From Vicinamibacterales bacterium (lineage in GTDB: Bacteria > Acidobacteriota > Vicinamibacteria > Vicinamibacterales > CAVVIG01), in the NCBI GenBank assembly GCA_035939575.1, contig DASZFS010000049.1, positions 1,518-65,517 of the forward strand: 64,000 nt of DNA, read 5' to 3'. Made by a program: the position numbers and the translations under genes. The notes under the pieces are model-generated. The model did no database searches and had not been told where the DNA came from. It saw only the letters and a program-made list of their open reading frames with translations. Shown here in pieces: positions 6,038-44,287 of this stretch; position 1 is the stretch's first letter, and each line of letters opens with the position of its first letter.

Positions 6038-7420
6038 TCAGATGGCGCCGGCGAACGTCTCGTACAGGAGGTACACGTTGAGCACCCCGATGATAACCGC
6101 GACCGACCACGCCAGCGCTTTTACCCAGCCAGGATTCACGAAGGCGCCCATCTTCCTGACGTCGCTCGTGAAGGCCACAAGGGGGACCACCGCGAAGGGC
6201 AGCTGGAGGCTCAGAATCACCTGGCTGAGGATCAGGAGCGGGCCGGTCCCGCGCTCACCGTACAGCAGGACGACGATCACGGCGGGGATGATGGCGATGA
6301 GGCGCGTGATGAGGCGTCTCATCCAGGGGCGGAGGCGCAGGTTGAGGAACCCTTCCATCACGATCTGGCCGGCCAGCGTGCCGGTCAGCGTCGCATTCTG
6401 TCCGCTGCAGAGCAGCGCGACGGCGAACAAGACGCTGGCCATCGTCGTGCCGAGCAGGGGAGAGAGGAGCTGGTACGCATCGGAGATGTCGGCAACGTCC
6501 TGGTGGCCAGTTCCGTGGAAGACCGCCGCCGCCATGATCAGGATCGCGGCGTTGATGAAGAGCGCGGACATCAAGGCGACCGAGGAGTCGATCGTCGCGT
6601 AATGGATGGCCTCGCGCTTGCCCTCGGCGGTATCCACGTACTTTCGCGTCTGGACGATTGACGAATGCAGGTACAGGTTGTGCGGCATCACCGTGGCGCC
6701 GAGGATGCCGATCGCGATGTACAGCATGTTGCCGTTGCGGAGGATCTCGGCGCGCGGCACGAATCCGGCCATGACCGCGCCGAGATCGGGACGCGAGAGC
6801 AGCATCTCGACGGTGAACGATCCTGCGACGAGGACGATGAGCGCAACGACCAGCGCCTCGACGTAGCGGAAGCCGCGGTGCTGGAGGAACAGGACGATCA
6901 GCACGTCGAGCGCCGTCAGCGTCACGCCCCAGATGAGCGGCAAGCCCAACAGCAGATTGAGCGCGATGGCGGCGCCGATAACCTCGGCGAGGTCGCAGGC
7001 CGCGATCGCGATCTCACACACGATCCACAAGACGATGGTCAACGGGCGGGAGTAGCTGTCGCGGCACGCTTGCGCGAGGTCGCGGCCGCTGGCGATCCCG
7101 AGCCGCGCGGCCAATGCCTGGAGCAGGATGGCCATCAGGTTGGAGATCATGATCACGCTGAGGAGCGTGTAGCCGTAGCGCGCACCGCCGGCGAGGTCGG
7201 TGGCCCAGTTGCCTGGGTCCATGTAGCCAACCGCGACGAGATAGCCCGGCCCGGCGAAGGCGAAGAACTTGCTCCAGAACCCGGCACCGTGCGGGATGGC
7301 AATCGACCGGTGCACCTCGGGCAGGCTGACGCTCGTGGCGGGCAGTCGCCAGCCTTGCGGGCGCGGAAGAGGCGAGGACGATGTTTCTGGAGGCACCTTG
7401 ATCGAGTTTTGAATACTCAA
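6038..7420 (-). CDS. mntH: Nramp-family divalent metal:proton symporter
   Basis: [15 protein letters not shown] motif, many hydrophobic spans and the typical [21 protein letters not shown]-terminus. The listed start is TTG. The true start may be GTG 7396 (see the promoter feature). Confidence 0.9.
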
Positions 7421-7421
7421 A

Positions 7422-7430
7422 ATTATAGCA
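7422..7430 (-). promoter_or_regulatory. extended -10 element (TGcTATAAT) upstream of or abutting mntH
   Basis: Reverse complement of 7421-7431 is atGCTATAATt. A perfect TATAAT with an upstream TG ends 1 nt before the TTG start listed for mntH, in an AT-rich patch. Confidence 0.35.
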
Positions 7431-7483
7431 TAAACATAAGTCGACCTGTCCCCCTTCGCTCGCTGTGTGTCTTTGCTCGCGAG

Positions 7484-9130
<1,647 letters not shown>

Positions 9131-9270
9131 GAGGCCCTGCATGCGGCGGATTCTATAAGGAAACCGGCGGACGGGATCCACCGGGGAACTGGCTACCCAA
9201 CGGGGTAGTCACTTCCCGCTGCCAAGCGGGCTACGGCAGCAAAACAGGCGGTTCTTCGGGCTGTGTGATC

Positions 9271-9286
9271 CGGCACTGAATGTGCG
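9271..9286 (+). promoter_or_regulatory. weak sigma-54 -24/-12-like element (cGGCAC-N5-gTGCg) before HTH paralogue A
   Basis: GG-N10-GC spacing is correct and 8 of 11 consensus positions match. However, it lies only 12 nt from ATG 9298, so it would need a downstream GTG 9310 start or a leaderless mRNA. Confidence 0.2.
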
Positions 9287-9297
9287 GGCGCTGCGGC

Positions 9298-9579
9298 ATG
9301 CGAAGGTCGGTGTTCGTCGAGGAGGCGGCGACTCTGCTTGGGGTATCGCGGCGGACGGTGTATTACCGCATTCGCGATGGCCGGCTGAAGACGGTTCGAA
9401 CGCTGGGCGGGTCGCAGCGCGTCTTGCTCGAGTCGGTCGAGGCGTTGCTGCGCGAAGGGCTGGACGCGCGACTTAGAGGCCGAGGCGCTGGCGTTTCAGA
9501 TACAGGCCCTTCCGAGAAATCCCGAGCGCTTTCGCGGCCGGCTCGAGGCGACCGTGGTGGCTGCGCAGTGCAGCCTTGA
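9298..9579 (+). CDS. small excisionase/MerR-like helix-turn-helix protein (paralogue A)
   Basis: MRRSVFVEEAATLLGVSRRTVYYRIRDGRLKTVRTLGGSQRVLLESVEALL is an HTH_17/Xis-like core. The 3' ~107 nt overlap the convergent bEBP gene, so the C-terminal tail may not be real. Confidence 0.6.
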   Translation: MRRSVFVEEAATLLGVSRRTVYYRIRDGRLKTVRTLGGSQRVLLESVEALLREGLDARLRGRGAGVSDTGPSEKSRALSRPARGDRGGCAVQP

Positions 9580-12370
9580 TCATCTCGCATTCGATGCGCG
9601 ATAGGGTCGGGGCGAGCTTGTCAGTGAGCGGGATGGCGATCTCGCGTCCGCCGGGGCTCGGGTGCCGCAGGTCGGGCATGGCGCCGAGGATATCGGGGGA
9701 GATCGCGTCGGGCTCGAGGGTGGAGTTCGGCTCGGCGAGGGCGACCATGCGTCGGATTTCGTTTTGCAGCTGGCGCACGTTGCCGGGCCAGCGAAACAGC
9801 AGCAGGCGCTCCAGTGTGTCTTCGGCGACGTCGAGATGGCCTTTCTCGTAGTCCCGCGCGGCGAGGGTGACGAAGTGTTTGATCATGGCGGGGATCTCGT
9901 CGCGCCGTTCGCGCAGTGGCTTGATCGCAAGGCGCACGACGTTGAGGCGGTAGAAGAGGTCCTCGCGGAATTTCCCGTCGCGGACGGCGTCTTCGAGGTT
10001 GGCGTTGGTGGCGGCGACGACGCGGACGTTGACGCGGAGGGGGGCGGGCGCCCCGAGCGGGGCGATTTCGCCGGATTCGAGGAAGCGGAGGAGCTTTGGC
10101 TGCAGGTCGAGGCTCATCTCGCCGATTTCGTCGAGGAAGAGGGTGCCGTCGACGGCGCTGCGGATCAGGCCGAGTTGGTCGCGGTCGGCGCCGGTGAAGG
10201 CGCCGCGGCGGTGGCCGAAGAGCTGGCTCTCGAGGAGGTCGCGGGGGATGGCGGCGCAGTTGAAGGGCACGAAGGGCTTCTGGGCGCGGTCGGAGAAGTC
10301 GTGAATGGCGCGCGCGAGGATCTCCTTGCCTGTGCCGCTCTCGCCGGTGATGAGGACGTTGACGGTTGTGCGTGCGACGCGCTGGGCGAAGGTGGTCAGC
10401 TCGCGCATCTGGCCGGACAAGACGGCGTCACAGTGCGGCAACGGCAAGAACTCATCGGGTGCCCATAAATTCGAACGCCTCTCACGCTCGATGCGCCATT
10501 TATCTAGTTCGCGAAGTTTCTCTATCATTGCTCCCATCAGGGCAAGAGCGGCCTCGGACTCGATGTCAGGATTTGCGACGACAACAAGCTCTACCGCTTT
10601 CTCGCCATCGTCGCTTATCAAGAATCGTCTTATGTCGTTCTTCGATGATGATGATGGCTCGATCATAGACTCACGAGACTGCAGACTGCGTTTTTCTACC
10701 CTGGCTAGGCTGCAACATCCGATTCCTGTCAGTAGCTCACCCAACTCCGCAGCCACCAGCTCTGGTCGTGAAGGGTGGAGCATCGCCGTTGCCAATGAGT
10801 GGAGAACCTGCCGTCCGTCCGCAAAGATTTCGCATTCTTTGTCGAGGTGCGATCGACTCGGCGCGAAGTCCTCTAGATGCATCAATGTGGGAACATCTCC
10901 AGAGGCTTCGCAGATTCTCTTAGCTCGTGCCAGATATTGCCTCGCGCTAGCACGTTGCTCCGAATGAGCCGAGCTCCTGGATACCACAAACTCGAATCTC
11001 GCAAGAGACTCTGATGAATGGCCCTCCGCGCTGCTCATGACTTCCCGCAGAACGCCGATGCAGTTGACTGTCTTGTCCAACCTCTGAAGAATTTCAGCGT
11101 TTGTCAGTAGCGCAGATTTAAGAAGGCTGTGATCCCCCGTCACGCGCGACAAATGTATGGTTTGCCAGATCGCCGACAGTGCCTCGCTGAACATTCCTTG
11201 TTGCGCAAGAAGCCTGGCTCTGGTGTGTTCGGCATACCTGTGCGCGTAGAAAGCCCGATCGCCCTCCGTGTGAATTGTTGAATCGATCTGTACGAGTAAT
11301 TCGTTGCATTCTTCAAATCGCCCCTGCGCCAGCCTGGTCTGTGCCAATGCTTCGAGGACTCCATTATGTCTGTTGCCTTTTGAAGGAAGAATGCTGAGCG
11401 CCGTCTCAAAATATCCGACGGCCCGGTCGAATTCTCCAGAAATGAAGAGAAGACTCCCGGTATTTGCGGCCGCAGATCGACGAGACGCCGCAGAGCCCGA
11501 TTGTTCCGAGACGCTAAGTGCTCGTTCAGAGTGGTACTTGCCTTCTTCCAGCTGAGAACGCAAGACACACACAGCGAGCAAAATGTTCTCGGCTAATCCT
11601 TCCAGCCAGAGGTTTGGAATGCCGGCGATCAGCTGCTGGCCGAGTCTGACATGGCGAACGGCACTGTTCAGGAGTCCACGTCGTGCCTCCATCTCCCCGA
11701 CAAACATGTGAAGTTGAGCGGTGGTCTCGGGGTCGCCCAGCTTCGTGGTTGAACGCCGAAGATCATATAAGAGAGGAGTTGCTGCTTCGGGGCCTGAACG
11801 GTCCGAGACAACGGCTAGCAGTTTGCTTTGAATCCAGCAAAGCTGCCTCAAATTGCCACTCTTTGCGGAGAGGGCCGCGGCTCGCTGCAAGCGTGCGGTC
11901 CCTTCATCGGTGCAACCATCCTCAATGAGAACTCGGCCGAGGATGTTCTCACAACTTGCTAGCTGCGTTGGCGTAAGTCGGGGAGAATGTCGGAGTCGTT
12001 CTGACATGACTCGGGCCTGCGGGTGGTCACCGAGAATCTCAAGAAGTTCGGCTCTCGTGATTTGCGCTTCGGTTGACTCGGACGCGTTCTTAGAGAGCCC
12101 CTGATCCAGACTTTTAAGGGCTTCCCAATAACGACCCTGTCGCTGCAGACTGAGGACCGAGGCGAAGTGTTCGCTCTGCTCTTTTTTGTCTCGCACAAGG
12201 TGGATTCTTGCAGAGTTGACGACGTTTAGAGCCCTTTGAGGAACAAATCCCGGGATTAGCGTGCAACAGCTAGTCCAGGGCCGTGCGCCAAGCTGTGAGC
12301 ACTCAGTGAATACGCGGCTCTTTCTCCATGGTTTCGAAGGAAGGATGCACAGGTCCCGAAGGGGCTGCAA
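9473..12370 (-). CDS. sigma-54-dependent transcriptional activator (bEBP) with long TPR-like plus GAF-like N-terminal region
   Basis: Walker A GESGTGKE, GAFTGA loop (HRRGAFTGA), Walker B TLFLDEIGE and a C-terminal Fis-type HTH (AAKALGISRKGLYLKRQRLGL). The N-terminal ~640 aa is helical-repeat-like. Start uncertain: TTG 12370 (68-nt overlap with the upstream gene) or GTG 12196. Confidence 0.85.
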   Translation of the reverse strand: MQPLRDLCILPSKPWRKSRVFTECSQLGARPWTSCCTLIPGFVPQRALNVVNSARIHLVRDKKEQSEHFASVLSLQRQGRYWEALKSLDQGLSKNASESTEAQITRAELLEILGDHPQARVMSERLRHSPRLTPTQLASCENILGRVLIEDGCTDEGTARLQRAAALSAKSGNLRQLCWIQSKLLAVVSDRSGPEAATPLLYDLRRSTTKLGDPETTAQLHMFVGEMEARRGLLNSAVRHVRLGQQLIAGIPNLWLEGLAENILLAVCVLRSQLEEGKYHSERALSVSEQSGSAASRRSAAANTGSLLFISGEFDRAVGYFETALSILPSKGNRHNGVLEALAQTRLAQGRFEECNELLVQIDSTIHTEGDRAFYAHRYAEHTRARLLAQQGMFSEALSAIWQTIHLSRVTGDHSLLKSALLTNAEILQRLDKTVNCIGVLREVMSSAEGHSSESLARFEFVVSRSSAHSEQRASARQYLARAKRICEASGDVPTLMHLEDFAPSRSHLDKECEIFADGRQVLHSLATAMLHPSRPELVAAELGELLTGIGCCSLARVEKRSLQSRESMIEPSSSSKNDIRRFLISDDGEKAVELVVVANPDIESEAALALMGAMIEKLRELDKWRIERERRSNLWAPDEFLPLPHCDAVLSGQMRELTTFAQRVARTTVNVLITGESGTGKEILARAIHDFSDRAQKPFVPFNCAAIPRDLLESQLFGHRRGAFTGADRDQLGLIRSAVDGTLFLDEIGEMSLDLQPKLLRFLESGEIAPLGAPAPLRVNVRVVAATNANLEDAVRDGKFREDLFYRLNVVRLAIKPLRERRDEIPAMIKHFVTLAARDYEKGHLDVAEDTLERLLLFRWPGNVRQLQNEIRRMVALAEPNSTLEPDAISPDILGAMPDLRHPSPGGREIAIPLTDKLAPTLSRIECEMIKAALRSHHGRLEPAAKALGISRKGLYLKRQRLGL

Positions 12371-14684
12371 GCTGCGAAAGAGCGGTGGTGTCGATGGGAC
12401 TGCAAGCGACTGAAACGGTCGCCTCTGTCTTAAGAAGAATACCGCTCGCCGTACGAACCGTCTGATGAATCAATCTGTCGCGAATCCCAAGGCCGATTGC
12501 ATTGGCGCTAAGCATTGGCGTATCGGGCAGGAGAACGATGAATCTCTCGCCTCCGTGGTAGAAGAGAGAATCAGATTGGCGAAGGTGCCTTCGAACTGTA
12601 TCGGCCGTCTCGCTGAGAAGGTCGTAAGCGGCGCCGCTGCCGAGCGGAGCAGCAACCTTGCCGATACTATCGATCGTAATATGGAGAAGTGCGTGTTCTG
12701 ACCTCGCTCGAGAAGTTGCTCCAACGAGCTCAATCAAGCGGTTGAAGTTGGGAAGCGCCTTCAAAGGGTCGCGTTTGGTCGCCTGATCAAAAGCGACACT
12801 TCGGCGAAGAGCCCTTGCGGCCTCCCTAGCCACAGCTTCGATGATTCGTCGATGATCCTCGTTGAAACCGCTGACCTCCGTGGAATAAATCGACAGGACG
12901 CCAACAAGGTCGTCGTCCGTCGCGAGCGGAGTGCACAGACAACTCCTGAGAGAGAGCGCGTGTGGCCTCGCAGTGTCGCCAAAGTCTAGGACTGGGTCGG
13001 AATTGATGATGGTTTGGCGGTTCGCCGCAACCCAACCGCTTAGCCTTTGACCGAGGGGAACGCGAAGGCCCCTAACAAGAGATGCCCCTTCCCCAGTTGC
13101 GTGCCTCGCTTCGAGTTCAGCAGTGCCTTCGTCCACAACGAAGAACACACACAGCGAACATGAGATCAGGCGTCTGAGATGTCTTGCGCTTATATCGGCG
13201 GCGTCAATTGCATTAACCTGGGCGCTCAAGTCTCGAGCCAGTTCGTGCAATGTGAGCGTTTCGTCGACACTGGCGGAAATCCCGTCGAGTATCGGCGCAC
13301 CAAGCGTCGGCGGCACCGCCTTGCGAGCGCTGGCGATTTCGTCAAGGGCGCGCGGCGAAGGACCGCTGGCCGACGGTGCCGGCGCGATTAAGTCATGGAC
13401 TTTGACGAAGGTGTCAACAACTAGCGGGTCGTACATGCCGCCCCGCCGCTGCATCAGTATGTTGAGGGCTTCTGAGTCGCTGAGTCTCGGCCGGTACGGA
13501 CGGTCGGACGTCAGTGCGTCAAAGCAATCGACGACTGAAAGAATGCGCGCTCCTATTGGAATGTCGGTTCCTCGGAGCCCAGCCGGATAGCCTGTGCCAT
13601 CCCAGTTCTCATGGTGATGGCGAACTATAGGCACGACTGGGTAGGGAAAATCGATCGCCGAGAGGATGTCAGCGCCTACGCTGGCGTGCAGTTTCATCTT
13701 GTCGAATTCAGCGGCCGTCAGTTTGCCTGGCTTGTTCAAGATATATTCTGGAACCGCTAGTTTTCCCATGTCGTGGAGCAGCGCGGCCGCTTCAATTGCC
13801 TTGAGCAGACGTTCTTCCTTGATTCCGACATAGCCGGCTAAACCAGTCGCGTACGTCTGCACTCGTCGAATATGCCCGTGCGTAACCTGATCTTTGGCGT
13901 CGATCGCCATCGCAAGGGTTTCAATTGTCGAGAGGTAGAGCGTATTGAGCTCAGACAAATGATTGCTAGCGTCTTCAACGCGCCCCATCGCGGTTCGGAA
14001 TGTCAAATAGGAAACGACGAGCAATGGGACGATTATGGCAAGAGTGCTGTAGTTGAATCGGTTCGAGTATGTGACCAGCAAAGCTGCGACTGACGCTCCG
14101 CTGAAATAGTTGACGGAGAGCCAAGTGAAGTTCTTCCACCAGATTTCAAACGGTGATTTTCTAGTCTCGAATCCGAGAGCGACCGCGACCAGCCAGCTAT
14201 TTAGAAGAAAGTACAGAGCGGTGAAGACGACGAGTGGAAGGAATAAGCCCTCAAGCTGGGTAACCTTTTCGGAGTAAGGCGGTTGGCCGGATATCAGGAA
14301 GAACGCGCTGCCAGAGACCCAAATTGCGATTGCCGGTGCAGCAGTATTGAAAAGGACTCGGTGGACCGGCCGGCTTCCCGGCTTCATCCAAAAGAGAATG
14401 ATGAGGCACTCTAAGAGAACCGTTATAGCGCCAGCGGAAGGACCGAATATCAGTACTGAGGCAAAGACGAATGTCTCAGATACGGACAGACTTGCATTTA
14501 TCGTAGGGACCTTGACCGTGAAAGATCCCGTAAGTAGCGTGAGACCAGCCAGGATAAACCACTGCCGGCCGATGGGTTCCAGGTAGAGAACTTGGACCGA
14601 ACGCGCAACGGTGGCCGCGCCAAGGAGCACGACGGCAGCTACGTAGGCTCGGGCAAGCGGTCGTAACTTCAGGAACTCTTGCAT
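12303..14684 (-). CDS. multi-pass membrane HD-GYP protein with GAF and degenerate GGDEF (GGERF) domains
   Basis: About 7 N-terminal hydrophobic spans. HD...HHENWDGTGYP (HD-GYP) is present, followed by a GAF-like block (VFFVVDEGTAELEARH...LVGVLSIYS) and a GGDEF-like C-terminus with YHGGERFIVLL. ATG 14684 is preceded by GGAG at 8-nt spacing. The ORF track starts at GTG 14693. Confidence 0.85.
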   Translation of the reverse strand: MQEFLKLRPLARAYVAAVVLLGAATVARSVQVLYLEPIGRQWFILAGLTLLTGSFTVKVPTINASLSVSETFVFASVLIFGPSAGAITVLLECLIILFWMKPGSRPVHRVLFNTAAPAIAIWVSGSAFFLISGQPPYSEKVTQLEGLFLPLVVFTALYFLLNSWLVAVALGFETRKSPFEIWWKNFTWLSVNYFSGASVAALLVTYSNRFNYSTLAIIVPLLVVSYLTFRTAMGRVEDASNHLSELNTLYLSTIETLAMAIDAKDQVTHGHIRRVQTYATGLAGYVGIKEERLLKAIEAAALLHDMGKLAVPEYILNKPGKLTAAEFDKMKLHASVGADILSAIDFPYPVVPIVRHHHENWDGTGYPAGLRGTDIPIGARILSVVDCFDALTSDRPYRPRLSDSEALNILMQRRGGMYDPLVVDTFVKVHDLIAPAPSASGPSPRALDEIASARKAVPPTLGAPILDGISASVDETLTLHELARDLSAQVNAIDAADISARHLRRLISCSLCVFFVVDEGTAELEARHATGEGASLVRGLRVPLGQRLSGWVAANRQTIINSDPVLDFGDTARPHALSLRSCLCTPLATDDDLVGVLSIYSTEVSGFNEDHRRIIEAVAREAARALRRSVAFDQATKRDPLKALPNFNRLIELVGATSRARSEHALLHITIDSIGKVAAPLGSGAAYDLLSETADTVRRHLRQSDSLFYHGGERFIVLLPDTPMLSANAIGLGIRDRLIHQTVRTASGILLKTEATVSVACSPIDTTALSQLAAPSGPVHPSFETMEKEPRIH

Positions 14685-14788
14685 GGCGGCCACTCCTCTA
14701 TGGAAGTGGCCCCAACGTTATCGGTCTAGTTGCCCCAAACGATTAGTGAGCGCATGACTCTCTCCCTTAGGTAGTTACCAAAACTGTG

Positions 14789-16585
14789 CTAGTTGACGAG
14801 GTCTTGGCCCCAGATGATCGTGTCGGCCTCGACGTTTTGGCCCCAGATGATGGTGTCTGCGGTGCTTTGCCCCCATATGATGGTGTCACCAGCGTTCTGA
14901 CCCCAAATAATGGTGTCGCTCGCGTTTTGCCCCCAGATGATGGTGTCTCCAGCGCTCTGCCCCCAAATGATGGTGTCTGCAGCCGACTGGCCCCAGATAA
15001 TCGTCTGGCCTTGGACAAGGGTTTGACCCCAAATGATGGTCTGGCCCCAGATGATGGTTTGCCCCCAAATAATCGTCTGGGCACGGAGAAGTGGATCGAC
15101 CTTGGGCACGATCAACAGGCCTCGCGCCTGCACAATCTCGCCACCGATCGACATTTCTGGAATTGAATGTTTCGTGAGGCTCCGGGACGATAGGGTGACA
15201 GCTGCCAAGACATTCAGGCTGCCGGCGCCGACGCCAACCAGGCCCTCTGTCTGAACCGCTGACGCGCTAACCTGAACTGTTCCCTTTACTGCATATGGCT
15301 TCATGTTCGGCCGCTGCTCCAGCACGAGCGCCACCGAACCGCTCACCACTGCCGCCGCCATGCTCGTCCCCGACAGCTGCATGTACGCGTCGTCGCCGCT
15401 GCCGGCCACATGCCGCTCGGGATGCATCGTCGCGAGGTACGCGTTGCTCGCCTGCGCGGACACGATGTGCGTCCCCGGCGCCGCGAGATCGGGCTTGATG
15501 ATCAAGTCGTACCGCGTCGGCCCGCGCGAGCTGAACGCGGCGAGCGTGTCGTCCGACCGCTGCGGCGTGCCATGGGTGTCCAGCGCCGCGACGGTCAGCG
15601 CATACGGGCTGTTCCCCGGCGACGTGATGCTCCCCATCACGGTCTTGCCATTCGCGCTGAGCCCCAGGTTCCCCGCTGCCGTCACCACCACGATGCCCGC
15701 GGTGACCGCGCGCTCAACCGCTTCGCACAGGGGATCGTCGCGATAGGGTTGAAGAACCGGCGTCCCGAGCGAGAGATTGATCACGCGAATCCCGAGCTCG
15801 TCCCGATGATCGACGGCCCAGTCCATCGCGTCGACCACGTTGCTCACCGTGCCCGAGCCGTCGTCACCCAGCGCGCGCAGGTTGACGAGACTCGCCCCCG
15901 ACGCGATGCCGCGGTACATCTGTGTGTCGGCGGTCCGCCCCGCCGCACCCGCGATGATGCCCGCCACATGCGTCCCGTGGCCGAACCGGTCCACGCCATC
16001 GCCGCCGGTGAAGTCCTTGGTGAAGATCACGCGATTGCGAAGCGCCGCGTGCTGGGTGTCGATGCCGGTGTCGATGATCGCGACCGTCACGCCGGTGCCG
16101 ATCAGCGGCCGCAGGTCTCCCTCGCCAGCCCACACCTGGTCCGCGCCAATGCTCTCCGCCGTCACGTCTGCCGCCGACCGGATGACGGTGTCGCCCGACA
16201 GATGATCGACCGCGTCATCCTGCTGCAACGCCGCGAGCTGACCGGCGTTGACGCGCAGCACCGCGCCCGTCTTGAGATAGCGCGCGACCACGACGTTGTA
16301 CCGCGCGGCCAGCGCGTCCACTTCCGCCTTGGTGCCGTGCACAATGACGTCGATGCGCGGCGACTGCACCAATAAGTGATCCGCGAGGTCCGCGCTCAGG
16401 CGCGCGCTGTGATGCTGCGCGCGGGCAGGCACCGCCATGCAGACCATGGCCATCGCACACACGAGCCCGCGGAGGGCCCGGGGAGTGATCGTGGCGACGT
16501 TCGCGACGCGTGCGACGTTTGCTGCGGGCGCCACGGGGCAGTCATGCGATGCGGTCGGATGTGTGTGGGCCATCGGCGGTCTCAT
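14789..16585 (-). CDS. secreted S8 (subtilisin-like) serine peptidase with C-terminal TIIWGQ repeat tail
   Basis: Catalytic triad contexts VAIIDTGID, HGTHVAGIIAG and SGTSMAAAVVSG are present. It has a signal-like N-terminus (AMAMVCMAVPARAQ) and 11 C-terminal xxxDTIIWGQ / TIIWGQ repeats. Confidence 0.9.
   Translation of the reverse strand: MRPPMAHTHPTASHDCPVAPAANVARVANVATITPRALRGLVCAMAMVCMAVPARAQHHSARLSADLADHLLVQSPRIDVIVHGTKAEVDALAARYNVVVARYLKTGAVLRVNAGQLAALQQDDAVDHLSGDTVIRSAADVTAESIGADQVWAGEGDLRPLIGTGVTVAIIDTGIDTQHAALRNRVIFTKDFTGGDGVDRFGHGTHVAGIIAGAAGRTADTQMYRGIASGASLVNLRALGDDGSGTVSNVVDAMDWAVDHRDELGIRVINLSLGTPVLQPYRDDPLCEAVERAVTAGIVVVTAAGNLGLSANGKTVMGSITSPGNSPYALTVAALDTHGTPQRSDDTLAAFSSRGPTRYDLIIKPDLAAPGTHIVSAQASNAYLATMHPERHVAGSGDDAYMQLSGTSMAAAVVSGSVALVLEQRPNMKPYAVKGTVQVSASAVQTEGLVGVGAGSLNVLAAVTLSSRSLTKHSIPEMSIGGEIVQARGLLIVPKVDPLLRAQTIIWGQTIIWGQTIIWGQTLVQGQTIIWGQSAADTIIWGQSAGDTIIWGQNASDTIIWGQNAGDTIIWGQSTADTIIWGQNVEADTIIWGQDLVN
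14804..15076 (-). repeat. coding tandem repeat, 18-nt (TIIWGQ) and 30/33-nt (xxxDTIIWGQ) units
   Basis: The protein tail reads TIIWGQ x3, TLVQGQ, TIIWGQ, then SAAD/SAGD/NASD/NAGD/STAD/NVEAD-TIIWGQ. The DNA shows CCCCA(G/A)AT(G/A)ATGGT... recurring with matching periodicity. Confidence 0.9.
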
Positions 16586-16590
16586 GGGTC

Positions 16591-16836
16591 CTAAGGATGT
16601 AAGGGACGCTCCGCGACGACGGACGCTCGGAACTCCTGCACCGAGTCGAGCAACACCCGCTGCGACCCGCCGCGCGTCCGAATTGTCTGAAGCCGCCCTT
16701 CCCGAATCCGGTTGTAGACCGTGCGGCGCGACACACCCAGCAACTGCGCAGCATGGTCCAGCGAGACGCTCCGTCCGATACGAGGTTCGACTTCGAGGTC
16801 GGTTTGCACGCGATCGTCAGCGTCGGTTGCGCTCAT
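16591..16836 (-). CDS. small excisionase/MerR-like helix-turn-helix protein (paralogue B)
   Basis: ...GRSVSLDHAAQLLGVSRRTVYNRIREGRLQTIRTRGGSQRVLLDSVQEF. 33 of 48 residues are identical to paralogue A by hand alignment. It ends 5 nt before the S8 peptidase start. Confidence 0.65.
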   Translation of the reverse strand: MSATDADDRVQTDLEVEPRIGRSVSLDHAAQLLGVSRRTVYNRIREGRLQTIRTRGGSQRVLLDSVQEFRASVVAERPLHP

Positions 16837-16864
16837 CTCAGTAGTGTCCGGTGCCGTCTATAAA

Positions 16865-16880
16865 GGCACGGCAGGTACCA
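16865..16880 (-). promoter_or_regulatory. candidate sigma-54 promoter (TGGTAC-N5-GTGCC) upstream of the HTH-B/S8 operon
   Basis: The minus strand reads TGGTACCTGCCGTGCC. GG-N10-GC spacing is correct and 8 of 11 consensus positions match. The -12 GC lies 30 nt upstream of ATG 16836, and a bEBP is encoded in the same gene string. Confidence 0.35.
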
Positions 16881-17019
16881 CGAACCGGAGCATCGCGGGG
16901 ATGGTATCTAACTCGTTGCTCAACAGTAAGTTGCTGGGCTAGCATGTCGGGGGGCTCAGCTGCCGTTTGACAGGCGGTTGGCCAAGAACCTGGCCTGTCA
17001 CAGGAAGTCTCCTCCATAG

Positions 17020-18903
17020 ATGTCTCTTTTTGCACGCAGAATAGCGCCCAACGGCCGGGTTGCACACAATTTTGATCGGCCAAGTTTTTGGCCACCTGGG
17101 CAGCTTTTGACCAGACAGGCGCGCATCGTGTCGGCCACTGCCGCGCTTGCCGTCGGAACCGCCCTGGCGGTTGCGTCAGGGGCGTGCGAACAGACCCCCG
17201 TCGCGCACGCACCAGGGGTCCGATCTGAAGCTGCGCCGGCAGCCGCAGCCGGCATTCCCGCAAGAGGCGGCTCGGCGGTTGCCTCCATTCGGACCGAGCC
17301 CCGGTCGTTCAACCGCCTGGTCGCGCGGGACAGCAGCACCGACCTGGTGGCGACCCTCACCCAGGCCAAGCTCGTTCGCATTAACAAAGTGACGCAGGAG
17401 CTCGAGCCTTGGCTTGCCCAGAGCTGGAAAACCGATGCGGACGGCCGCCACTACACCCTGGCCCTGCGCGAAGGGATCGCCTTCTCAGACGGTCACCCGT
17501 TCACCTCCGACGACGTGGTGTTCACGTTTCGCGCGTTGTACGACGCGAAAACGCAAAGCCCACTCGGTGATGCGCTGACCATTGCGGGCAAGCCAATCGA
17601 GGTCGCGGCCCTCGATCCGCACACCGTCGCGCTCACATTTCCATCCGCGTTCGCGCCCGGGCTTCGCCTCTTGAGCAACCTTCCAATTCTGCCCAGGCAC
17701 AAGCTTGAAGGCGCGTTCCGCCAGGGGACGCTCGCGGCGGCGTGGGGGGTGTCGACCGCGCCCGCGGACCTCACCGGTCTCGGTCCATTCATCCTGAGCG
17801 CGTACACACCGGGTCAACGGCTGGTGTTCGATCGCAACCCGCGCTATTGGCGAACCGACGATCGCGGCACTGCGCTCCCGTATCTCGACCGCCTGACCGT
17901 CGAGATCATCCCGGATCAGAACGCCGACCTGCTGCGGCTCCAGGCAGGGCAGCTTGATATGACGACCAGCGAGGTCGCGCCGGAATCGTACGCCGCGACC
18001 AGGCGTGCCGCGGACGCCGGAACGCTGAAGCTGTACGATCTCGGCGTCGCGCTCGTCGCCGACAGCTTCTGGATCAACCTCAAACCTGGCACGTTCGCTG
18101 GCGACCCGCGCGCCGCGTGGCTTCAGCGGGACGAGTTCCGGCGCGCGATCTCGATGGCGGTGGACCGCAGGCTCTTCGCGGATACGGTGTTCTTCGGCGC
18201 GGGAGAGCCGGTCGACGGCCCGGAGACGCCCGCCAACAAGAAGTGGTACTCGCCTGACGTGCCGAAGGTGCCCCACGACCCCGACGGAGCCAGGCGGCTG
18301 CTGGCGTCCATCGGCCTCAACGATCACGACGGCAGCGGCGGGAACGGTCTCCTGATGGACGCCGGTCAGCGGCCCGTGCAGTTCACGCTGCTCACGCAGA
18401 AAGGGCGGCCCCGGCTCGAGCGGGGCGCGTCGGTCGTCCGCGACGAGCTCCGGAAGATCGGCGTGGTCATGGACGTCGCGGCGCTGGACGGCGGCGCGGT
18501 CATCGAGCGCATCGTGTCGGGCAAGTACGACGCGGTGTACTTCAACCCTCAGGCGACGGACACGGACCCGGGGACAAACCCGGACTTCTGGCTCAGCTCC
18601 GGTACGGCGCACCTGTGGAACATGGCGGAGGCCAAGCCCGCCACCCCCTGGGAGCAGCACATCGACGAGTTGATGGCGCGGCAGGCAGCGTCGTTCGACG
18701 AGAACGAGCGGCGGCGCATTTTCACCGATGTCCTTCGCATCTTCGGCGAGCACCAGCCGGTGCTCTACTTCGCCGCGCCCAGGCTGTTTGTCGCCGTGTC
18801 GTCCCGCATGATCCTGACGCCGGCCGTGGATCCGTGGCCCGCGCTGTGGTCGCCGGATACCATCGCGGTTGCGGTCCGCGCTCAACCGACGCCGGGACGA
18901 TAG
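17020..18903 (+). CDS. ABC transporter substrate-binding protein, family 5 (peptide/nickel type)
   Basis: 627-aa ORF with an N-terminal signal/lipobox-like LAVASGAC. Length and conserved blocks (e.g. FSDGHPFTSDDVVFTF, NPRYW) are typical of DppA/OppA-like SBPs. Two permease genes follow. Confidence 0.8.
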   Translation: MSLFARRIAPNGRVAHNFDRPSFWPPGQLLTRQARIVSATAALAVGTALAVASGACEQTPVAHAPGVRSEAAPAAAAGIPARGGSAVASIRTEPRSFNRLVARDSSTDLVATLTQAKLVRINKVTQELEPWLAQSWKTDADGRHYTLALREGIAFSDGHPFTSDDVVFTFRALYDAKTQSPLGDALTIAGKPIEVAALDPHTVALTFPSAFAPGLRLLSNLPILPRHKLEGAFRQGTLAAAWGVSTAPADLTGLGPFILSAYTPGQRLVFDRNPRYWRTDDRGTALPYLDRLTVEIIPDQNADLLRLQAGQLDMTTSEVAPESYAATRRAADAGTLKLYDLGVALVADSFWINLKPGTFAGDPRAAWLQRDEFRRAISMAVDRRLFADTVFFGAGEPVDGPETPANKKWYSPDVPKVPHDPDGARRLLASIGLNDHDGSGGNGLLMDAGQRPVQFTLLTQKGRPRLERGASVVRDELRKIGVVMDVAALDGGAVIERIVSGKYDAVYFNPQATDTDPGTNPDFWLSSGTAHLWNMAEAKPATPWEQHIDELMARQAASFDENERRRIFTDVLRIFGEHQPVLYFAAPRLFVAVSSRMILTPAVDPWPALWSPDTIAVAVRAQPTPGR

Positions 18904-19883
18904 TGGCGCGCTACGTCGTCCGGCGGCTCGCGTTCGCGCTGTTCCTGGTCTTCGCCGTATCGTCGGCCTCCCTCGTTCTTGCCCGTCTCGCGCCAGGTGA
19001 CTACGCGGCGACGTCGCTTGGCTTCGAGGCGAGGCGGGAGACCGTTGACGAGATGCGCGAGCGGCTGGGACTCAACAAGCCGCTGATCGCCCAGTACCGC
19101 GACTGGCTTGCCGCCGCCCTGCGCTTCGACTTCGGACGGTCGCTGCAATACGATCGTCCTGTCCGCGATTTGATTCCCGAGCGCGCTGCCAACACGGCGC
19201 TCCTGTCCATCAGCGCCATTCTCCTCGCCACCCTCGTCGGCCTTCCGCTCGGCGTCGTCGCCGGCAGCCGCCGGAGCGGTCTGCTGCCAGGCGCGATTCG
19301 CGCGGCCTCGCTGGTGCTGCTGTCGACGCCGCCGCTGCTCACGTCACTGTTCCTTGTCTTCCTGGCCGCGCGGACCGGTTGGTTTCCCATCGCCGGCATG
19401 CGGTCGGCCGTCGTGCCGCCGGGAGGCGCCCTGGTCGATCTTCTGCATCATCTCGTCGTGCCTGCGGCGGCCATCGGCCTTCCGCTCGCGGCCATGCTCG
19501 AGCGGCTGGAAGCGCAGGCCATGACCGAAGCGGTCGCGGAGCCGTTCGTCCTGGCGGCGTTCGCGCGCGGTGTGCCGACGGCCCGCGTGATCTGGCGCGA
19601 CGCGCTGAAAGCGTCGCTGCGGCCGGTCGCGTCGGTGTACGGCCTCATCATCGGCACGCTGTTCAGCGGATCGTTCGCGGTCGAGGTCATCACGGCCTGG
19701 CCCGGGCTTGGCAGCCTGATGCTCGACGCTCTGCGCACGCGCGATGTGTACCTGGTCGCCGGATGCGCCGGCGCTGGCGCGGTGTTTCTCGCTGCCGGGA
19801 CGCTGCTGTCGGACCTGGCCCTGGCGCTGGTGGATCCCCGGGCAAGGGAGTCGCGGGAGTCGCGGGAAACGAGGGAGGCGTGA
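18903..19883 (+). CDS. ABC transporter permease (DppB/OppB-like)
   Basis: GTG 18903 overlaps the SBP TAG. The N-terminus VARYVVRRLAFALFLVF... is the typical permease start and there are six hydrophobic spans. The upstream part of ORF 18615..19883 lies in a different reading frame over the SBP gene and is not real. Confidence 0.85.
   Translation: MARYVVRRLAFALFLVFAVSSASLVLARLAPGDYAATSLGFEARRETVDEMRERLGLNKPLIAQYRDWLAAALRFDFGRSLQYDRPVRDLIPERAANTALLSISAILLATLVGLPLGVVAGSRRSGLLPGAIRAASLVLLSTPPLLTSLFLVFLAARTGWFPIAGMRSAVVPPGGALVDLLHHLVVPAAAIGLPLAAMLERLEAQAMTEAVAEPFVLAAFARGVPTARVIWRDALKASLRPVASVYGLIIGTLFSGSFAVEVITAWPGLGSLMLDALRTRDVYLVAGCAGAGAVFLAAGTLLSDLALALVDPRARESRESRETREA
19846..19881 (+). repeat. 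9-nt tandem repeat (GGGAGTCGC x2 plus 2 degenerate units) encoding RESRESRETREA
   Basis: Read directly at the extreme 3' end of the permease gene. It overlaps the GTGA start/stop junction with the next permease gene. Confidence 0.9.
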
Positions 19884-41006: not shown

Positions 41007-41321
41007 CTATGCGAGGATGTCCATGATGCGCACGCGCGTGTAGACGGCGCGGTGGCCTTTGGTCTTGCGCTGCCCCTTGCGGCGCTTCTTCTTGAAGACG
41101 CGAATCTTGGGCCCGCGGGCTTCGCCTTCGACGATCCCGACGATTCTCGCGTCGGCGACGAACGGTGCGCCGGTCAGGACCTCGCCGCCGTCTTTTTCGA
41201 CGAGCAGCACCTGTTCGAGGGTGACCTGTGCGCCGGGTTCCGCGACGGTGCCCGGCACGAGGGCGTAAGCGCCCTTGGTGACCTTCAATTGATGGCCGCT
41301 GGTCTGGATGATTGCGTACAT
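41007..41321 (-). CDS. rplU: 50S ribosomal protein L21
   Basis: [14 protein letters not shown]...[23 protein letters not shown] 41321 lies inside ORF 41007..41354. Confidence 0.95.
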
Positions 41322-41456
41322 AGTCGGCACCTGTGGAAAAGGGGTAGTGTACAACCGAAGTGGCTCAATTGTAAAGGCTTACGCCTGGGGGGCAGTGCTT
41401 CAGTTTGCAAATCTGTAAGTCGTCTCGCCCGAACGCCGCTATGCGATACTCTCAGT

Positions 41457-41765
41457 ATGCCCAAGCGGTCACGCACGACACCGTTACGACGGTCCGAACA
41501 CCATCCTTCGAAGCAACCGTCCAGAGTCGTGAGCAAAGCTCACCAGCTTGAGCGCGACGAGAACGAAACCGCCTTCGATGTGCTCCAACAAATCATCGCA
41601 CGGACGGAAGGAACAGGCGAGAAGAACCCCTTAGCGGTCGCCCTGGGGCGTCTCGGAGGGCTCAAGGGTGGTCATGCGCGAGCGGCGAAGCTGACGAAAC
41701 GTGAGCGTAGTGAGAGTGCATCTAAGGCCGCTCAAGCCCGATGGAGTCGTCACAAGAAATCCTAG
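41457..41765 (+). CDS. hypothetical small basic protein (102 aa)
   Basis: ATG 41457 lies within ORF 40962..41765, whose 5' part is antisense to rpmA/rplU. The C-terminal NPLAVALGRLGGLKGGHARAAKLTKRERSESASKAAQARW motif is one I have seen in small proteins of mobile elements. No firm family. Confidence 0.45.
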   Translation: MPKRSRTTPLRRSEHHPSKQPSRVVSKAHQLERDENETAFDVLQQIIARTEGTGEKNPLAVALGRLGGLKGGHARAAKLTKRERSESASKAAQARWSRHKKS

Positions 41766-42274
41766 CACTCGCCGGCCGGCTTCGGCATAGCATGTTCGCA
41801 GACCCACGAAAAGAAACGATCCTGATCCACACCACCGGCTTCATCTCCAAGATCCACAAACATTTTCTCGATTTCATCATCTGTCTGGTGAAACTCGTAG
41901 GCATTGAGATCGAGAAACGCAAGCATTGCGATAGCGGCGGTGCGCTTATTGCCATCTAAGAACGGTTGGCCTTCAGCTATTCCGAAGGCGTAGGAAGCAG
42001 CCTTATGAGGAATCGTCGGATAGAGATCATCGCCGCCGAATGTGGCGCGAGGTTGCCCAACGGCCGATGCTAGCCCCTCGTACGAACGAAAGCCCTCACT
42101 GCCTCCACCGACAGCGAGGGCCATCTTGTGATACTCAACGACTTGATCCAACGTTAAGTAGATCGCTCCAAACGCGATGATGTCACCGCTTGGTGAGCCG
42201 CTCAGCAGCAAGATTCTCCAACAGTTTCCTGCGAGTCTGAACGACGCGTTCTCCAGCCGCACGGGCTTCGTCAT
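41762..42274 (-). CDS. doc: Fic/Doc-family death-on-curing toxin homologue with Gln in place of the motif His
   Basis: The motif reads GQPFLDGNKRTA (expected HxFxDGNKR) and LEsA-like GLASAVGQP is present. The gene lies immediately downstream of an AbrB-type antitoxin gene. Start uncertain: the ORF start 42274 overlaps the antitoxin by 92 nt, and in-frame TTG 42151 is an alternative. Confidence 0.75.
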   Translation of the reverse strand: MTKPVRLENASFRLAGNCWRILLLSGSPSGDIIAFGAIYLTLDQVVEYHKMALAVGGGSEGFRSYEGLASAVGQPRATFGGDDLYPTIPHKAASYAFGIAEGQPFLDGNKRTAAIAMLAFLDLNAYEFHQTDDEIEKMFVDLGDEAGGVDQDRFFSWVCEHAMPKPAGEC

Positions 42275-42431
42275 CCTTCGCTACTCGATGCGGTGTAAGG
42301 ATCAACTGCTCCCCATGCGGGGTGAGTTCGACTTCCGTCCCAATCTCCCATCCCAGTTGCTTCATGACGGCTTGGTCGATGGTCAAACCCGCAGAGTTGC
42401 CGACGCGGGTTACACGTTTCACTAAGGCCAT
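42183..42431 (-). CDS. AbrB/MazE/SpoVT-type antitoxin
   Basis: MALVKRVTRVGNSAGLTIDQAVMKQLGWEIGTEVELTPHGEQLILTP is a swapped-hairpin AbrB-like fold signature. GGGAGG lies 5 nt upstream of the ATG. Confidence 0.8.
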   Translation of the reverse strand: MALVKRVTRVGNSAGLTIDQAVMKQLGWEIGTEVELTPHGEQLILTPHRVAKDDEARAAGERVVQTRRKLLENLAAERLTKR

Positions 42432-42453
42432 TGGCCACCTCCCACACCGCTCA

Positions 42454-42604
42454 GGTTATAACATCGTCATAACCCAAGCGAATATAGCTAGTTGCGGAAA
42501 TTAGCGCCTCGCTAGATAAATTAGCTATTAGCTAATGCGAGATTAGCCCTTGTGGTAGTCGCCAACTGATCGTATATTGATCATCCTAAAGGAGATTAGC
42601 CCTT
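42454..42604. promoter_or_regulatory. cluster of operator-like repeats in the divergent antitoxin / orphan-gene intergenic region
   Basis: Repeats seen: IR GGTTAT-N9-ATAACC (42454-42474, overlapping a TATAAC -10 for the antitoxin); AAATTAGC at 42498 and 42518; perfect palindrome ATTAGCTAAT (42527-42536); 13-nt direct repeat GAGATTAGCCCTT at 42539-42551 and 42592-42604; IR TGATC-N7-GATCA (42567-42583). Confidence 0.5.
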
Positions 42605-43077
42605 TGCCCATTTTCCGCGTCGTGATCAATGGCCGTGAAGTTACGGCCGAAAGTCTCGATGATCTCGAAGCTCTGCTAGACCGTTTTCCAGGCACGCATT
42701 CGACGCCTGCAGAAACCCATTCACCGTCGCATCGGGCCGGAAAGGCGCATCCAGACGGCCCTTGGCCTGCGTCTCGATTTAAAGATTTTATCGGCCGACT
42801 GACCGATTCTCAGCGACGAATGCTCCAAGAACTAGTCAAGAGCCAACATGGAAAGACCGCACGCGACTTGGCGCAGATCCTTGGATTTCGGGACGCCAAG
42901 GTCTTCGGTCCTGTCATGGCCGCAATGTCCAAGCACGCCAAGAAAACAGGAGTTCGCATCCAAGACGTGTTGACGACGGAGCGCATAGATGTTGGCGATC
43001 ACGAGAAGGCCACGTTGTTTAAGGCCGCAGATTCGTTTGCTCGGGCAGCCGGAGAGGCTGGTTGGCCTCGGAGCTAA
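42604..43077 (+). CDS. hypothetical protein with possible winged-helix segment
   Basis: TTG 42604 is preceded by AAGGAG at 9 nt; the ORF track starts at TTG 42577. The central LTDSQRRMLQELVKSQHGKTARDLAQILGF looks HTH-like. No family recognised. Confidence 0.45.
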   Translation: MPIFRVVINGREVTAESLDDLEALLDRFPGTHSTPAETHSPSHRAGKAHPDGPWPASRFKDFIGRLTDSQRRMLQELVKSQHGKTARDLAQILGFRDAKVFGPVMAAMSKHAKKTGVRIQDVLTTERIDVGDHEKATLFKAADSFARAAGEAGWPRS

Positions 43078-43157
43078 AAGGAGGCAAATCTATGCACATT
43101 CTGAGAGTAGCCCGTCCCTGTCTCCTGGCCCACCGGGAGTCCGGGGAGATAGACGAA

Positions 43158-43197
43158 GGGCCGTCCCTCCTACCCTAAGCAAGTAAAGGGACGGCCC
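43158..43197. repeat. perfect 11-bp inverted repeat GGGCCGTCCCT-N18-AGGGACGGCCC
   Basis: Read directly. A third partial copy (CCCGTCCCT) lies about 50 nt upstream. A second small hairpin CCTCAC-tttc-GTGAGG followed by TTTCC is at 43207-43226. Possible terminator or IS-end remnant. Confidence 0.6.
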
Positions 43198-43230
43198 ATA
43201 GGTGGGCCTCACTTTCGTGAGGTTTCCTAG

Positions 43231-43983
43231 GATTATTGTACCACTCTGAAGATCTCACTTGACAATGCCTGCGCGGACCTGCACGACGAGAAGATCCGCG
43301 ACATCGACGCACAGCGCGTGCAGTGCGACGAGATCTGGCAATTCGTCGGAGCAAAGGCGAAGAACGTCTCGGACGAAAAGAAGATCGCCGGATGGGGCGA
43401 TTGCTGGACGTGGACCGCCATCGACGCCGACACGAAGCTGATCATTTCGTATGAAATCGGCTCGCGGAATGCGTTCAACTGCTACGAGTTCATGAAGGAT
43501 CTTGCCTCGCGCCTGACGGGCCGCGTCCAGCTTTCAACAGACGGCCTTCGTTGGTATCACGATGCCGTTGATCACGCCTTCGGCATCGACGTGGACTTCG
43601 CGCAGATCAACAAAATCTTCGGGAAGGTCGCTGCCGATCCGAGTGCCGCCGTTCGCTATAGTCCTGCGAAGATCACCGGCGTCACGAAGGAGGTGGTAAG
43701 AGGCAACCCGGATCCAAAGCACATCTCAACGAGCTACGTGGAGCGCCAGAACCTCACGATGCGGATGTCCATGCGGCGGTTTACGCGGCTGACCAATGGG
43801 TTCAGCAAAAAAATCGACAACCACATGGCCGCGACCGCGCTACACTTCGCGTACCACAACTTCTGCCGCGTGCATCAGACGCTACGCGTGACGCCCGCGA
43901 TGGAAGCCCGATTGACCGACCACGTGTGGAGTATTGAAGAATTGGTCGGCCTGCTGGATAGACGTAACGCGCTCGCGGCGTGA
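43231..43983 (+). mobile_element. 5'-truncated IS1-family-like DDE transposase gene fragment
   Basis: VQCDEIWQFVGAKAKN...GDCWTWTAIDADTKLIISYEIG.R...STDG...Y...SYVERQNLTMRMSMRRFTRLTNGFSKK...YNFCRVHQTL matches the IS1-like pattern. The frame is open from 43231 (just after TAG 43228-43230) with no ATG, and the N-terminal HTH part is missing. No terminal inverted repeats identified. Confidence 0.7.
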
Positions 43984-43995
43984 TGGAGGCGATGA

Positions 43996-44079
43996 ATGCA
44001 CGTCTCGATCAACGTCTGGTGGCTCGTCGGGATTGCGGCAATCGTCGTCATAGTGATTATGACGGTGTTCAAGAAATGA
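43996..44079 (+). CDS. possible 27-aa hydrophobic peptide (MHVSINVWWLVGIAAIVVIVIMTVFKK)
   Basis: Below the ORF-track size cutoff. GGAGG lies 6 nt upstream of the ATG. One TM segment plus a KK tail. It starts 13 nt after the transposase-fragment stop. Confidence 0.35.
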   Translation: MHVSINVWWLVGIAAIVVIVIMTVFKK

Positions 44080-44197
44080 GCACGCAAACTGACGCACTAC
44101 GCCCCCCTGGGCGGGCGTGGGTCAGTATGACAGTCCGACCAGACATGGCATCGATGGCCTGCCCTTCGCGTACCATGACTTCTGCATGTCTGGGGTA

Positions 44198-44287
44198 ATG
44201 GGCCTTCACGGCTTGACGATGCCGGTGCTTATCACCATTTTTCTTGTTGGCCTGATGCTGCTTGGTCCTCGGAGGAACGTTCGATGA
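44198..44287 (+). CDS. possible 29-aa hydrophobic peptide (MGLHGLTMPVLITIFLVGLMLLGPRRNVR)
   Basis: Below the ORF-track cutoff. One TM segment plus a basic tail. Only a weak GGGG upstream. Confidence 0.25.
   Translation: MGLHGLTMPVLITIFLVGLMLLGPRRNVR

Follow-up and report, generated by a model that had tools for sequence, protein, structure and literature searches.

The 64,000-nucleotide stretch of Vicinamibacterales DNA analyzed here (the window) contains a cluster of genes coding for an S8 subtilase, a membrane HD-GYP protein and a sigma-54 enhancer-binding protein (bEBP), all three on the minus strand, and a 4.9 kb valley of low GC content that begins within the S8 gene, takes in the whole of the HD-GYP gene and ends within the bEBP gene. 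The valley is sharply bounded, its edges lie inside reading frames, and it recurs at the same place in the relatives of this genome. Coordinates of the genes and features are given in Table 1, in which GC3 denotes the GC content of third codon positions.

Table 1. Features of the S8/HD-GYP/bEBP locus, in window coordinates
Feature	Coordinates	Strand	Remarks
Low-GC3 valley	10446..15308	-	GC 0.55; spans the S8 tail, the entire HD-GYP gene and the bEBP sensor
Second HTH_17 paralogue	9280..9579	+	Converges on the bEBP gene, overlapping its 3' end and stop codon
bEBP	9473..12370	-	TPR/MalT-like sensor, AAA+ (Walker A GESGTGKE, GAFTGA), AAA lid, HTH_8
High-GC3 part of bEBP (AAA+, lid, HTH)	9473..10445	-	GC3 0.83-0.97
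Membrane HD-GYP protein	12303..14693	-	MASE9-like transmembrane region, HD-GYP, GAF, degenerate GGDEF; wholly inside the valley
S8 subtilase	14789..16585	-	Catalytic domain (residues 163-445) GC-rich; C-terminal repeat tail in the valley
Tandem repeats, 30 nt and 18 nt	14804..15080	-	Code for the S8 tail's (D)TIIWGQ units
Small HTH_17 (excisionase/BldC-like) gene	16591..16836	-	Leads the cluster; kept in L164, L166-L171 and L179
Sigma-54-type promoter, TGGTAC-N5-GTGC	16866..16880	-	44 nt upstream of the HTH_17 start codon

The bEBP matches PF00158 with 225.7 bits (cut-off 20.2) and both PF25601 and PF02954 above their cut-offs, and GESGTGKE and GAFTGA are readable in its translation. Its start codon is uncertain: the open reading frame opens at 12370, and the orthologue in L001, the closest relative, starts at the equivalent of ~12196. 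A first-pass annotation, made from the DNA letters without database searches, had described the bEBP sensor as TPR/GAF-like; the TPR assignment stands, with Pfam placing TPR and MalT-like TPR repeats there, but Pfam assigns a GAF domain to the HD-GYP protein and none to the bEBP. The HD-GYP protein matches PF13487 with 137 bits (cut-off 27.2), has the HD and GYP motifs in its translation (LHDMGK and HHENWDGTGYP), and is a predicted member of the cyclic di-GMP phosphodiesterase family. Its architecture recurs in thousands of homologues: 7997 of 8000 scored candidates match at E<=1e-60, with 55-100% identity among the 120 matches listed. The S8 protein matches PF00082 with 172.8 bits, has an apparent N-terminal signal region and contains the Asp/His/Ser triad motifs (DTGID, HGTHVAG and GTSMAAA); its C-terminal tail has no Pfam family match, and its best named relatives come from Vicinamibacterales metagenome-assembled genomes (MAGs).

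The GC profile of the window was determined by sliding-window GC together with a two-breakpoint maximum-likelihood fit, which gives GC contents of 0.664 (7000-10445), 0.553 (10446-15308) and 0.674 (15309-19000) and beats the zero-breakpoint model by 83 log-likelihood units. The first-pass annotation had placed the edges of a lower-GC block at 10450 and 15290, within 20 nt of the fitted 10445 and 15308, and the computed GC and codon-usage profiles do step at those positions. In composition the valley is as atypical of its host as an island would be, with GC at 0.553 against 0.66-0.67, and the step is concentrated in synonymous third positions, where GC3 in the bEBP and S8 frames is about 0.9 in the flanks and about 0.57 in the valley. 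In the bEBP it is ~0.55 through codon 630 of the 965-codon open reading frame and 0.83-0.97 thereafter; in the S8 gene it is 0.82-0.95 through codon 420 and then 0.63-0.70; and along the entire HD-GYP gene it is 0.50-0.72, or 0.60 overall. When codon order was shuffled 2000 times per gene, none of the 2000 shuffles reached the observed step statistic either for the bEBP (112, shuffle maximum 16) or for the S8 gene (29, shuffle maximum 17), and the same procedure found no internal step in the HD-GYP gene (statistic 3.6). Base usage at 4-fold degenerate sites is A.20, C.32, G.25 and T.23 in the valley, and A.06, C.47, G.42 and T.06 in the flanks.

Both edges fall close to domain limits. The bEBP step follows codon 592 (in the 918-amino acid form), ~12 codons ahead of the AAA+ domain, with LSGQMRELTTFAQ beginning at residue 604 and Pfam Sigma54_activat at residue 606, and the S8 step follows codon 429, ~16 codons short of the Pfam S8 domain end at residue 445, with GAGSLNVLAAV at residue 453. 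The two reading frames are unbroken across the edges and their translations continuous, so that the earlier description of a block with edges at protein-domain boundaries, uninterrupted frames and an entire HD-GYP gene between them is borne out in each respect. No repeat pair coincides with 10445 and 15308 in a repeat scan of the window, a tRNA scan finds no tRNA in the 64 kb and hence none bordering the valley, an Rfam scan of the window has no matches, and Pfam and NCBIfam give only S8, HD-GYP, bEBP and HTH_17 at the edges, with no mobility genes.

The window has a second lower-GC stretch at 41200-44300 (GC 0.49-0.60) with a Fic/DOC gene on the minus strand (41762..42274) and, on the plus strand, a fragment of an IS1-like transposase (43318..43983). 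It is a mobile-element island of the ordinary kind, against which the valley can be compared. There is also a brief GC dip to 0.55-0.56 at 51300-51900.

A protein search with the bEBP recovered full-length orthologues at 47-61% identity, and a 656-amino acid protein 91% identical to the sensor part only. From contigs bearing homologues of the bEBP, HD-GYP and S8 proteins, we assembled a set of twelve lineages (the window, L001, L002, L003, L084, L164/L165, L166, L167/L168, L169, L170, L171 and L179) that derive from JGI, ENA, Logan and GTDB assemblies of more than ten independent samples, made with several assemblers; valley-bearing contigs include ones of 454 kb, 535 kb, 1.0 Mb and 4.2 Mb. 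All twelve lineages have the valley, at a GC content of 0.49-0.62 with flanks of 0.62-0.72, and in the relatives it extends from the 3' part of the S8 gene to the sensor/AAA+ junction of the bEBP. HD-GYP proteins of the other lineages are 55-94% identical to that of the window. Where enough flank is available the gene order is a divergent SBP_bac_5/ABC transporter, HTH_17, S8, HD-GYP and TPR-bEBP, followed past the bEBP by an AMP-binding gene in some lineages and then by genes for Nramp, Usp and an ECF sigma factor. Collinearity between the window and L164 extends over window positions 53-23722 (23.7 kb), at 72-77% nucleotide identity. In window residue numbering, the bEBP steps lie at 592 in the window, 598 in L003, 578 in L084, 554 in L167, 649 in L002 and 418 in L166, and the S8 steps at 429 in the window, 418 in L002, 422 in L164, 454 in L167 and 517 in L166. 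The pairs L167 and L168 (99.8% identical) and L164 and L165 (100% identical) are too alike to inform on recombination inside versus outside the valley.

These comparisons overturn most of the interpretation in the first-pass annotation, which was of an in-frame cassette replacement in this genome with an assembly chimera as the alternative; what stands is that the block is a real unit. The annotation had itself named comparison of the orthologous locus in relatives as a test on which a swap would fail, and the relatives share the composition: eleven other lineages have the valley in the same syntenic operon, and the junctions recur in the assemblies of more than ten independent samples. Presence is not patchy, as would be typical of an island, and the deep tree topologies agree (see below). 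The same valley in independently assembled relatives therefore rules out both a chimera and a recent swap.

Several of these loci have additional features of their own. In L001, which is 90% identical in nucleotide sequence within the valley, a GC-rich mobile element (L001:3650-13836) lies inside the bEBP gene, inserted precisely at the codon with which the Walker A motif GESGTGKE begins, a position that corresponds to the window junction 10344/10345. Besides a large serine recombinase, encoded on the minus strand at L001 3712-5367, the element carries a further resolvase, ArdC and a TIR protein, and its insertion has cut the activator down to its sensor part. Some lineages show decay of the locus. 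In L164 (12400-13700) the AAA+ part of the bEBP is lost and a sensor remnant remains. On the 4.2 Mb contig of L179 (10001-17017) the S8, HD-GYP and bEBP genes have one frame change each, all within the valley, and these could be either real pseudogenes or long-read errors.

We compared 4-fold sites between lineages, using codons that specify the same residue in the two sequences compared. In the valley, nucleotide identity at such sites is 0.22-0.32 between lineages, where ~0.25 is expected by chance, and the correlation of weak and strong base states is ~0 in valley and flanks alike, with the exception of the window and L001 (+0.62), for which every available outgroup is saturated at synonymous sites. 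The low GC is therefore not the leftover signature of a donor. Nevertheless, every lineage has a GC content at 4-fold sites (GC4) of 0.55-0.73 inside the valley and of 0.88-0.98 in its flanks. Because the sites have been fully redrawn and the contrast returns each time, the valley must represent a locally maintained equilibrium; flank-type dynamics acting there would be expected to leave only a few percent of any initial GC deficit. The shift in codon usage spans all synonymous families, 4-fold usage is nearly uniform, and the composition is near that of intergenic DNA (GC 0.49-0.63) and the IS/Fic island (0.56). First-position GC (GC1) and amino acid usage are also shifted towards AT-rich codons, which fits with long exposure to this composition. 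We conclude with high confidence that the valley is ancient, has been inherited and is maintained locally; neither a swap nor a chimera accounts for it.

Two explanations of codon-usage differences do not account for the valley. One is that low GC3 tracks weak protein constraint, as in Akashi-type or fast-evolving-domain effects. However, GC3 is much the same in invariant and variable alignment columns (0.60 and 0.58 in the sensor, 0.64 and 0.63 in the HD domain, 0.87 and 0.88 in AAA+), and the HD domain has a GC3 of only 0.56-0.76 despite being the most conserved segment of the locus, with 71% invariant columns (more than AAA+) and a pairwise identity of 0.78-0.91. The equality of column types and the position of the conserved HD domain inside the valley show that the effect is regional and not driven by constraint. 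The second, expression-linked codon selection, is excluded because the steps fall within reading frames, whose two halves do not differ in expression level, strand or replication context. The predicted genes of the valley are functional and under purifying selection as judged by dN/dS between the window and L001, with values of 0.02 for the HD domain, 0.15 for the sensor as a whole and 0.11-0.34 for other segments.

Quartet trees with 500 bootstraps were built for five segments: S8 catalytic, S8 tail, transmembrane (TM) plus HD, sensor, and AAA+. The deep topologies are congruent over all five, grouping the window with L002 and L164, then L167, and then L166 and L084, with bootstraps of 406-500/500 in the block segments and 315-500/500 in the AAA+ part; for the most part, therefore, block and flanks have diverged together. 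Some conflicts occur locally: sensor quartets pair the window with L002 (500/500) and with P0004 (484/500), AAA+ quartets pair it with L003 (383/500 and 462/500), and the GAF-GGDEF segment unites L167, L170 and L166. L169 is a mosaic, its S8 catalytic segment being window-like (0.80-0.83 identity) and its HD-GYP membrane segment nearest to that of L084 (0.61, compared with 0.45 to the window); a clear mosaic junction lies between S8 and HD-GYP at L169:10001-10720. Segment phylogenies, which the first-pass annotation had proposed as a check, thus speak against a swap in their deep congruence, while the local conflicts and the L169 mosaic favor old recombination near domain borders. These comparisons suggest that alleles already low in GC have been exchanged within the family, the breakpoints lying close to domain limits.

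The sensor evolves about 3-5x faster than the AAA+ part. In amino acid identity the sensor (0.26-0.51), GAF-GGDEF (0.31-0.56) and the S8 tail (0.28-0.73) contrast with AAA+ (0.63-0.85) and the S8 catalytic domain (0.39-0.83, typically 0.58-0.83). The variable sensor, GAF-GGDEF and tail segments lie between conserved flanks, yet TM (0.41-0.86) and HD (0.78-0.91) are conserved within the valley.

The valley is specific to this family of loci. As a control we took 56 unrelated bEBP loci with a GC-rich AAA+ segment, found by scanning contigs with a bEBP alignment (generic peptides GESGTGKE and FREDLFY), a search in which L084 was the sole orthologue. Among the controls, the GC content of the 1.5 kb upstream minus that of AAA+ is -0.005 at the median and never lower than -0.075; in L084 it is -0.135. 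GC3 differences of up to 0.29 occur in a few unrelated bEBPs, but total GC shows no valleys there and these probably reflect over-extended frames. In L152, an Acidobacteriota MAG with a GC content of 0.70, a 45%-identical HD-GYP protein is encoded beside a bEBP in a different gene arrangement, and there is no valley. In L171 (12493-15400) the valley takes in the whole bEBP gene, in which AAA+/HTH has a GC3 of 0.52-0.64 while being a normal orthologue (0.63-0.72 amino acid identity), and stops at the start of a strongly conserved Nramp gene (81-86% nucleotide identity). The absence of a valley in L152 and the low-GC AAA+ of L171 together show that the valley is not intrinsic to the proteins. 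Since L166 and L084 branch outside L171 and have a GC-rich AAA+ segment, the L171 state looks derived by parsimony, as though the valley had spread. We also considered a rearrangement just downstream of the L171 bEBP, as an account based on homology anchors would suggest, but this was not confirmed, the conserved Nramp gene following directly.

What maintains the valley is a separate question, and our preferred answer is offered tentatively, as a plausible rather than a probable one. A genome-wide GC-raising force, either GC-biased gene conversion (gBGC) or weak selection for GC, would be much weaker inside the valley, at ~40% of its strength in the flanks if a mutation bias of 2.5 (GC-to-AT over AT-to-GC) is assumed. 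The cause may be that exchanges with relatives by homologous recombination are seldom resolved within the module, which is mosaic and partly hypervariable: its highly variable S8 tail and its equally variable GAF-GGDEF and bEBP sensor stretch enclose a 1.3 kb conserved TM and HD core. Conserved coding DNA for the S8 catalytic and AAA+ domains would act as homology anchors and so set sharp in-frame edges, and the process could reinforce itself, as unbiased third positions would reduce nucleotide identity to relatives and lead to still less recombination. Recombination and GC content are reported to be positively linked within bacterial genomes (PMC4450053; PMC11879095). One small observation is consistent with reduced recombination and gBGC in the valley: the window and L001 have 125 nt of GC-rich AAA+ sequence in common and differ there at four positions, where ~12 differences would be expected at the valley rate.

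Several considerations weigh against this explanation. Its link to recombination and gBGC is entirely inferential, and the conserved TM and HD core could recombine independently. Hitchhiking would produce graded rather than sharp edges, the low-GC AAA+ segment of L171 adjoins a conserved Nramp gene in a way that homology anchors do not predict, and the valley is shallower in some segments of L002 and L166 without evident reason. A related possibility, which we regard as rather unlikely, is that the valley is a self-sustaining second compositional state, in which loss of GC-biased fixation leaves unbiased third positions that reduce identity to relatives, suppress recombination and gBGC still more and hold the DNA near mutational equilibrium indefinitely; edges would then remain sharp and the state would occasionally spread, as in L171.

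Alternatively, the AT-richness or the rare codons may themselves be selected, either because a nucleoid-associated or silencing protein binds there and gates the operon, or because translation of the signaling proteins is slowed. We consider this unlikely. Such selection would account for the sharpness of the edges, for the persistence of the valley through saturated divergence and for its restriction to one operon, but 4-fold usage is near uniform instead of being skewed to particular rare codons, the shift is equal over codon families and over conserved and variable columns, and both the depth and the edge positions vary by lineage (L002, L166 and L171). A throttle acting on only parts of two proteins is also hard to justify.

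It is distinctly unlikely that valley alleles are re-imported recurrently from an unsampled lower-GC reservoir, recombining in through the conserved flanks, which would be a repeated form of the process proposed in the first-pass annotation. The conflict between sensor and AAA+ quartet trees in the inner clade, the L169 mosaic and the grouping of L167, L170 and L166 by GAF-GGDEF are all as such re-import would predict, as is the low-GC AAA+ segment of L171 if a crossover had occurred further downstream. However, the deep topology of TM and HD and of the sensor matches that of S8 catalytic and AAA+ (406-500/500 bootstraps), no pair of lineages has a valley more alike than its flanks, and no uniformly low-GC locus is present among the twelve lineages. 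Nor was a copy found on the viral contigs scanned, where the HD-GYP protein has only generic 36-42% domain matches, and the valley edges have no mobility genes.

A single in-frame insertion of low-GC DNA in the common ancestor that is still unameliorated is a very doubtful account of the valley. It would explain why the edges are at domain borders, and the valley-free and differently arranged HD-GYP/bEBP pair of L152 fits a one-time assembly of the operon. However, weak and strong states at 4-fold sites are uncorrelated between lineages, flanks included, indicating that several relaxation times have elapsed, and flank-type dynamics predict a present GC3 of >0.8 where 0.55-0.65 is seen in nearly all lineages; GC1 and amino acid usage are shifted too. 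The valley may still have begun with an in-frame insertion in that ancestor. A recent cassette replacement from a lower-GC donor is extremely improbable: the sharp GC3 steps in two frames with a whole gene between them are what it predicts, but relatives with an HD-GYP protein no more than 51-71% identical overall to that of the window (0.81-0.91 within the HD domain) have the same steps in the same synteny, and the edges lack mobility genes and repeats. A metagenomic chimera of high-GC and lower-GC organisms joined at conserved domains can be dismissed, for although the junctions do adjoin conserved domain-coding DNA, they recur in independent assemblies from several assemblers, on contigs of up to 4.2 Mb, and the window is collinear with L164 over 23.7 kb.

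A separate outcome of this analysis is the definition of the operon itself. When upstream regions of the window and seven relatives were aligned, each had the motif TGG[C/T][A/T][C/T]-N5-[G/T]TGC 40-51 nt before the start codon of HTH_17, within spacers that are otherwise divergent, and a scan with the strict sigma-54 consensus gave matches no commoner than chance. From this conserved predicted promoter we infer that the operon is sigma-54-dependent, and its own bEBP is probably the activator, in which case it would be autoregulated. The second HTH_17 gene and the first form an inverted repeat (arms 9335-9446 and 16631-16742, 78% complementary), and the inverted paralogues flank the S8/HD-GYP/bEBP cluster; a second copy is also predicted in L170 and on the contig of P0004. 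None of the operon proteins reaches an NCBIfam equivalog cut-off, and the system is therefore uncharacterized. This conserved, uncharacterized operon of Vicinamibacterales-like Acidobacteriota thus encodes an HTH_17 protein, an apparently secreted S8 protease whose tail consists of TIIWGQ repeats, an HD-GYP membrane protein and a TPR-bEBP.

Compositional steps are routinely taken as evidence of horizontal transfer or of mis-assembly, and the valley, with a GC3 step of ~0.3, is neither. It is a counter-example for composition-based detection of horizontal gene transfer and of chimeras, and it bears on what keeps bacterial GC content above its mutational equilibrium. The causes that remain are regional forces such as recombination and gBGC, or selection at the DNA level, and population data at the locus could separate them. 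If the valley is indeed a second compositional state, the operon would be a natural experiment that parts gBGC from codon selection within single reading frames, and atypical composition would be something stably inherited and not a mark of foreign origin.

Like classical genomic islands, the valley is a multi-kilobase block of atypical GC content and codon usage. Under the Lawrence and Ochman model horizontally acquired islands ameliorate towards the composition of the host, whereas the valley is present in all relatives, co-diverges with its flanks and is unameliorated despite saturation; it also lacks an integrase, tRNA or direct repeats at its edges. A closer comparison is with replacement islands, hypervariable loci exchanged through conserved flanks such as those for O-antigen and capsule and, in P. 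aeruginosa, for pyoverdine, pilin and flagellin glycosylation. The valley bears a partial resemblance to these in lying at the same chromosomal site in all relatives with a GC content below that of the genome, in having highly divergent segments with conserved DNA on both sides, and in its traces of allelic exchange. It differs in that its edges are inside frames at domain borders, it holds a very conserved core (TM and HD, 0.8-0.9 amino acid identity), its deep phylogeny is congruent with the flanks, it codes for signaling proteins and not surface structures, and its persistence across saturated synonymous divergence is shown directly.

A unit of evolution that spans genes has been described in the lpl cluster of S. 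aureus (PMC2568036), where, as may hold for the valley too, the evolutionary unit does not match the genes, conserved sequence within open reading frames is the site of recombination, and the variable parts of adjacent frames move together. The lpl genes are tandem paralogues of one species with no compositional step, whereas the valley involves three different single-copy genes and a clade-wide GC3 signal. Finally, GC heterogeneity associated with recombination in bacteria has been read as gBGC (Lassalle et al. 2015, PMC4450053; Torrance et al. 2024, PMC11879095), a framework in which poorly recombining DNA is predicted to drift AT-richer independently of codon selection, as would suit the valley. 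The correlations in those studies are weak and at the level of genes, whereas the valley is a difference of ~0.3 in GC3 with intragenic edges that is found in twelve lineages.

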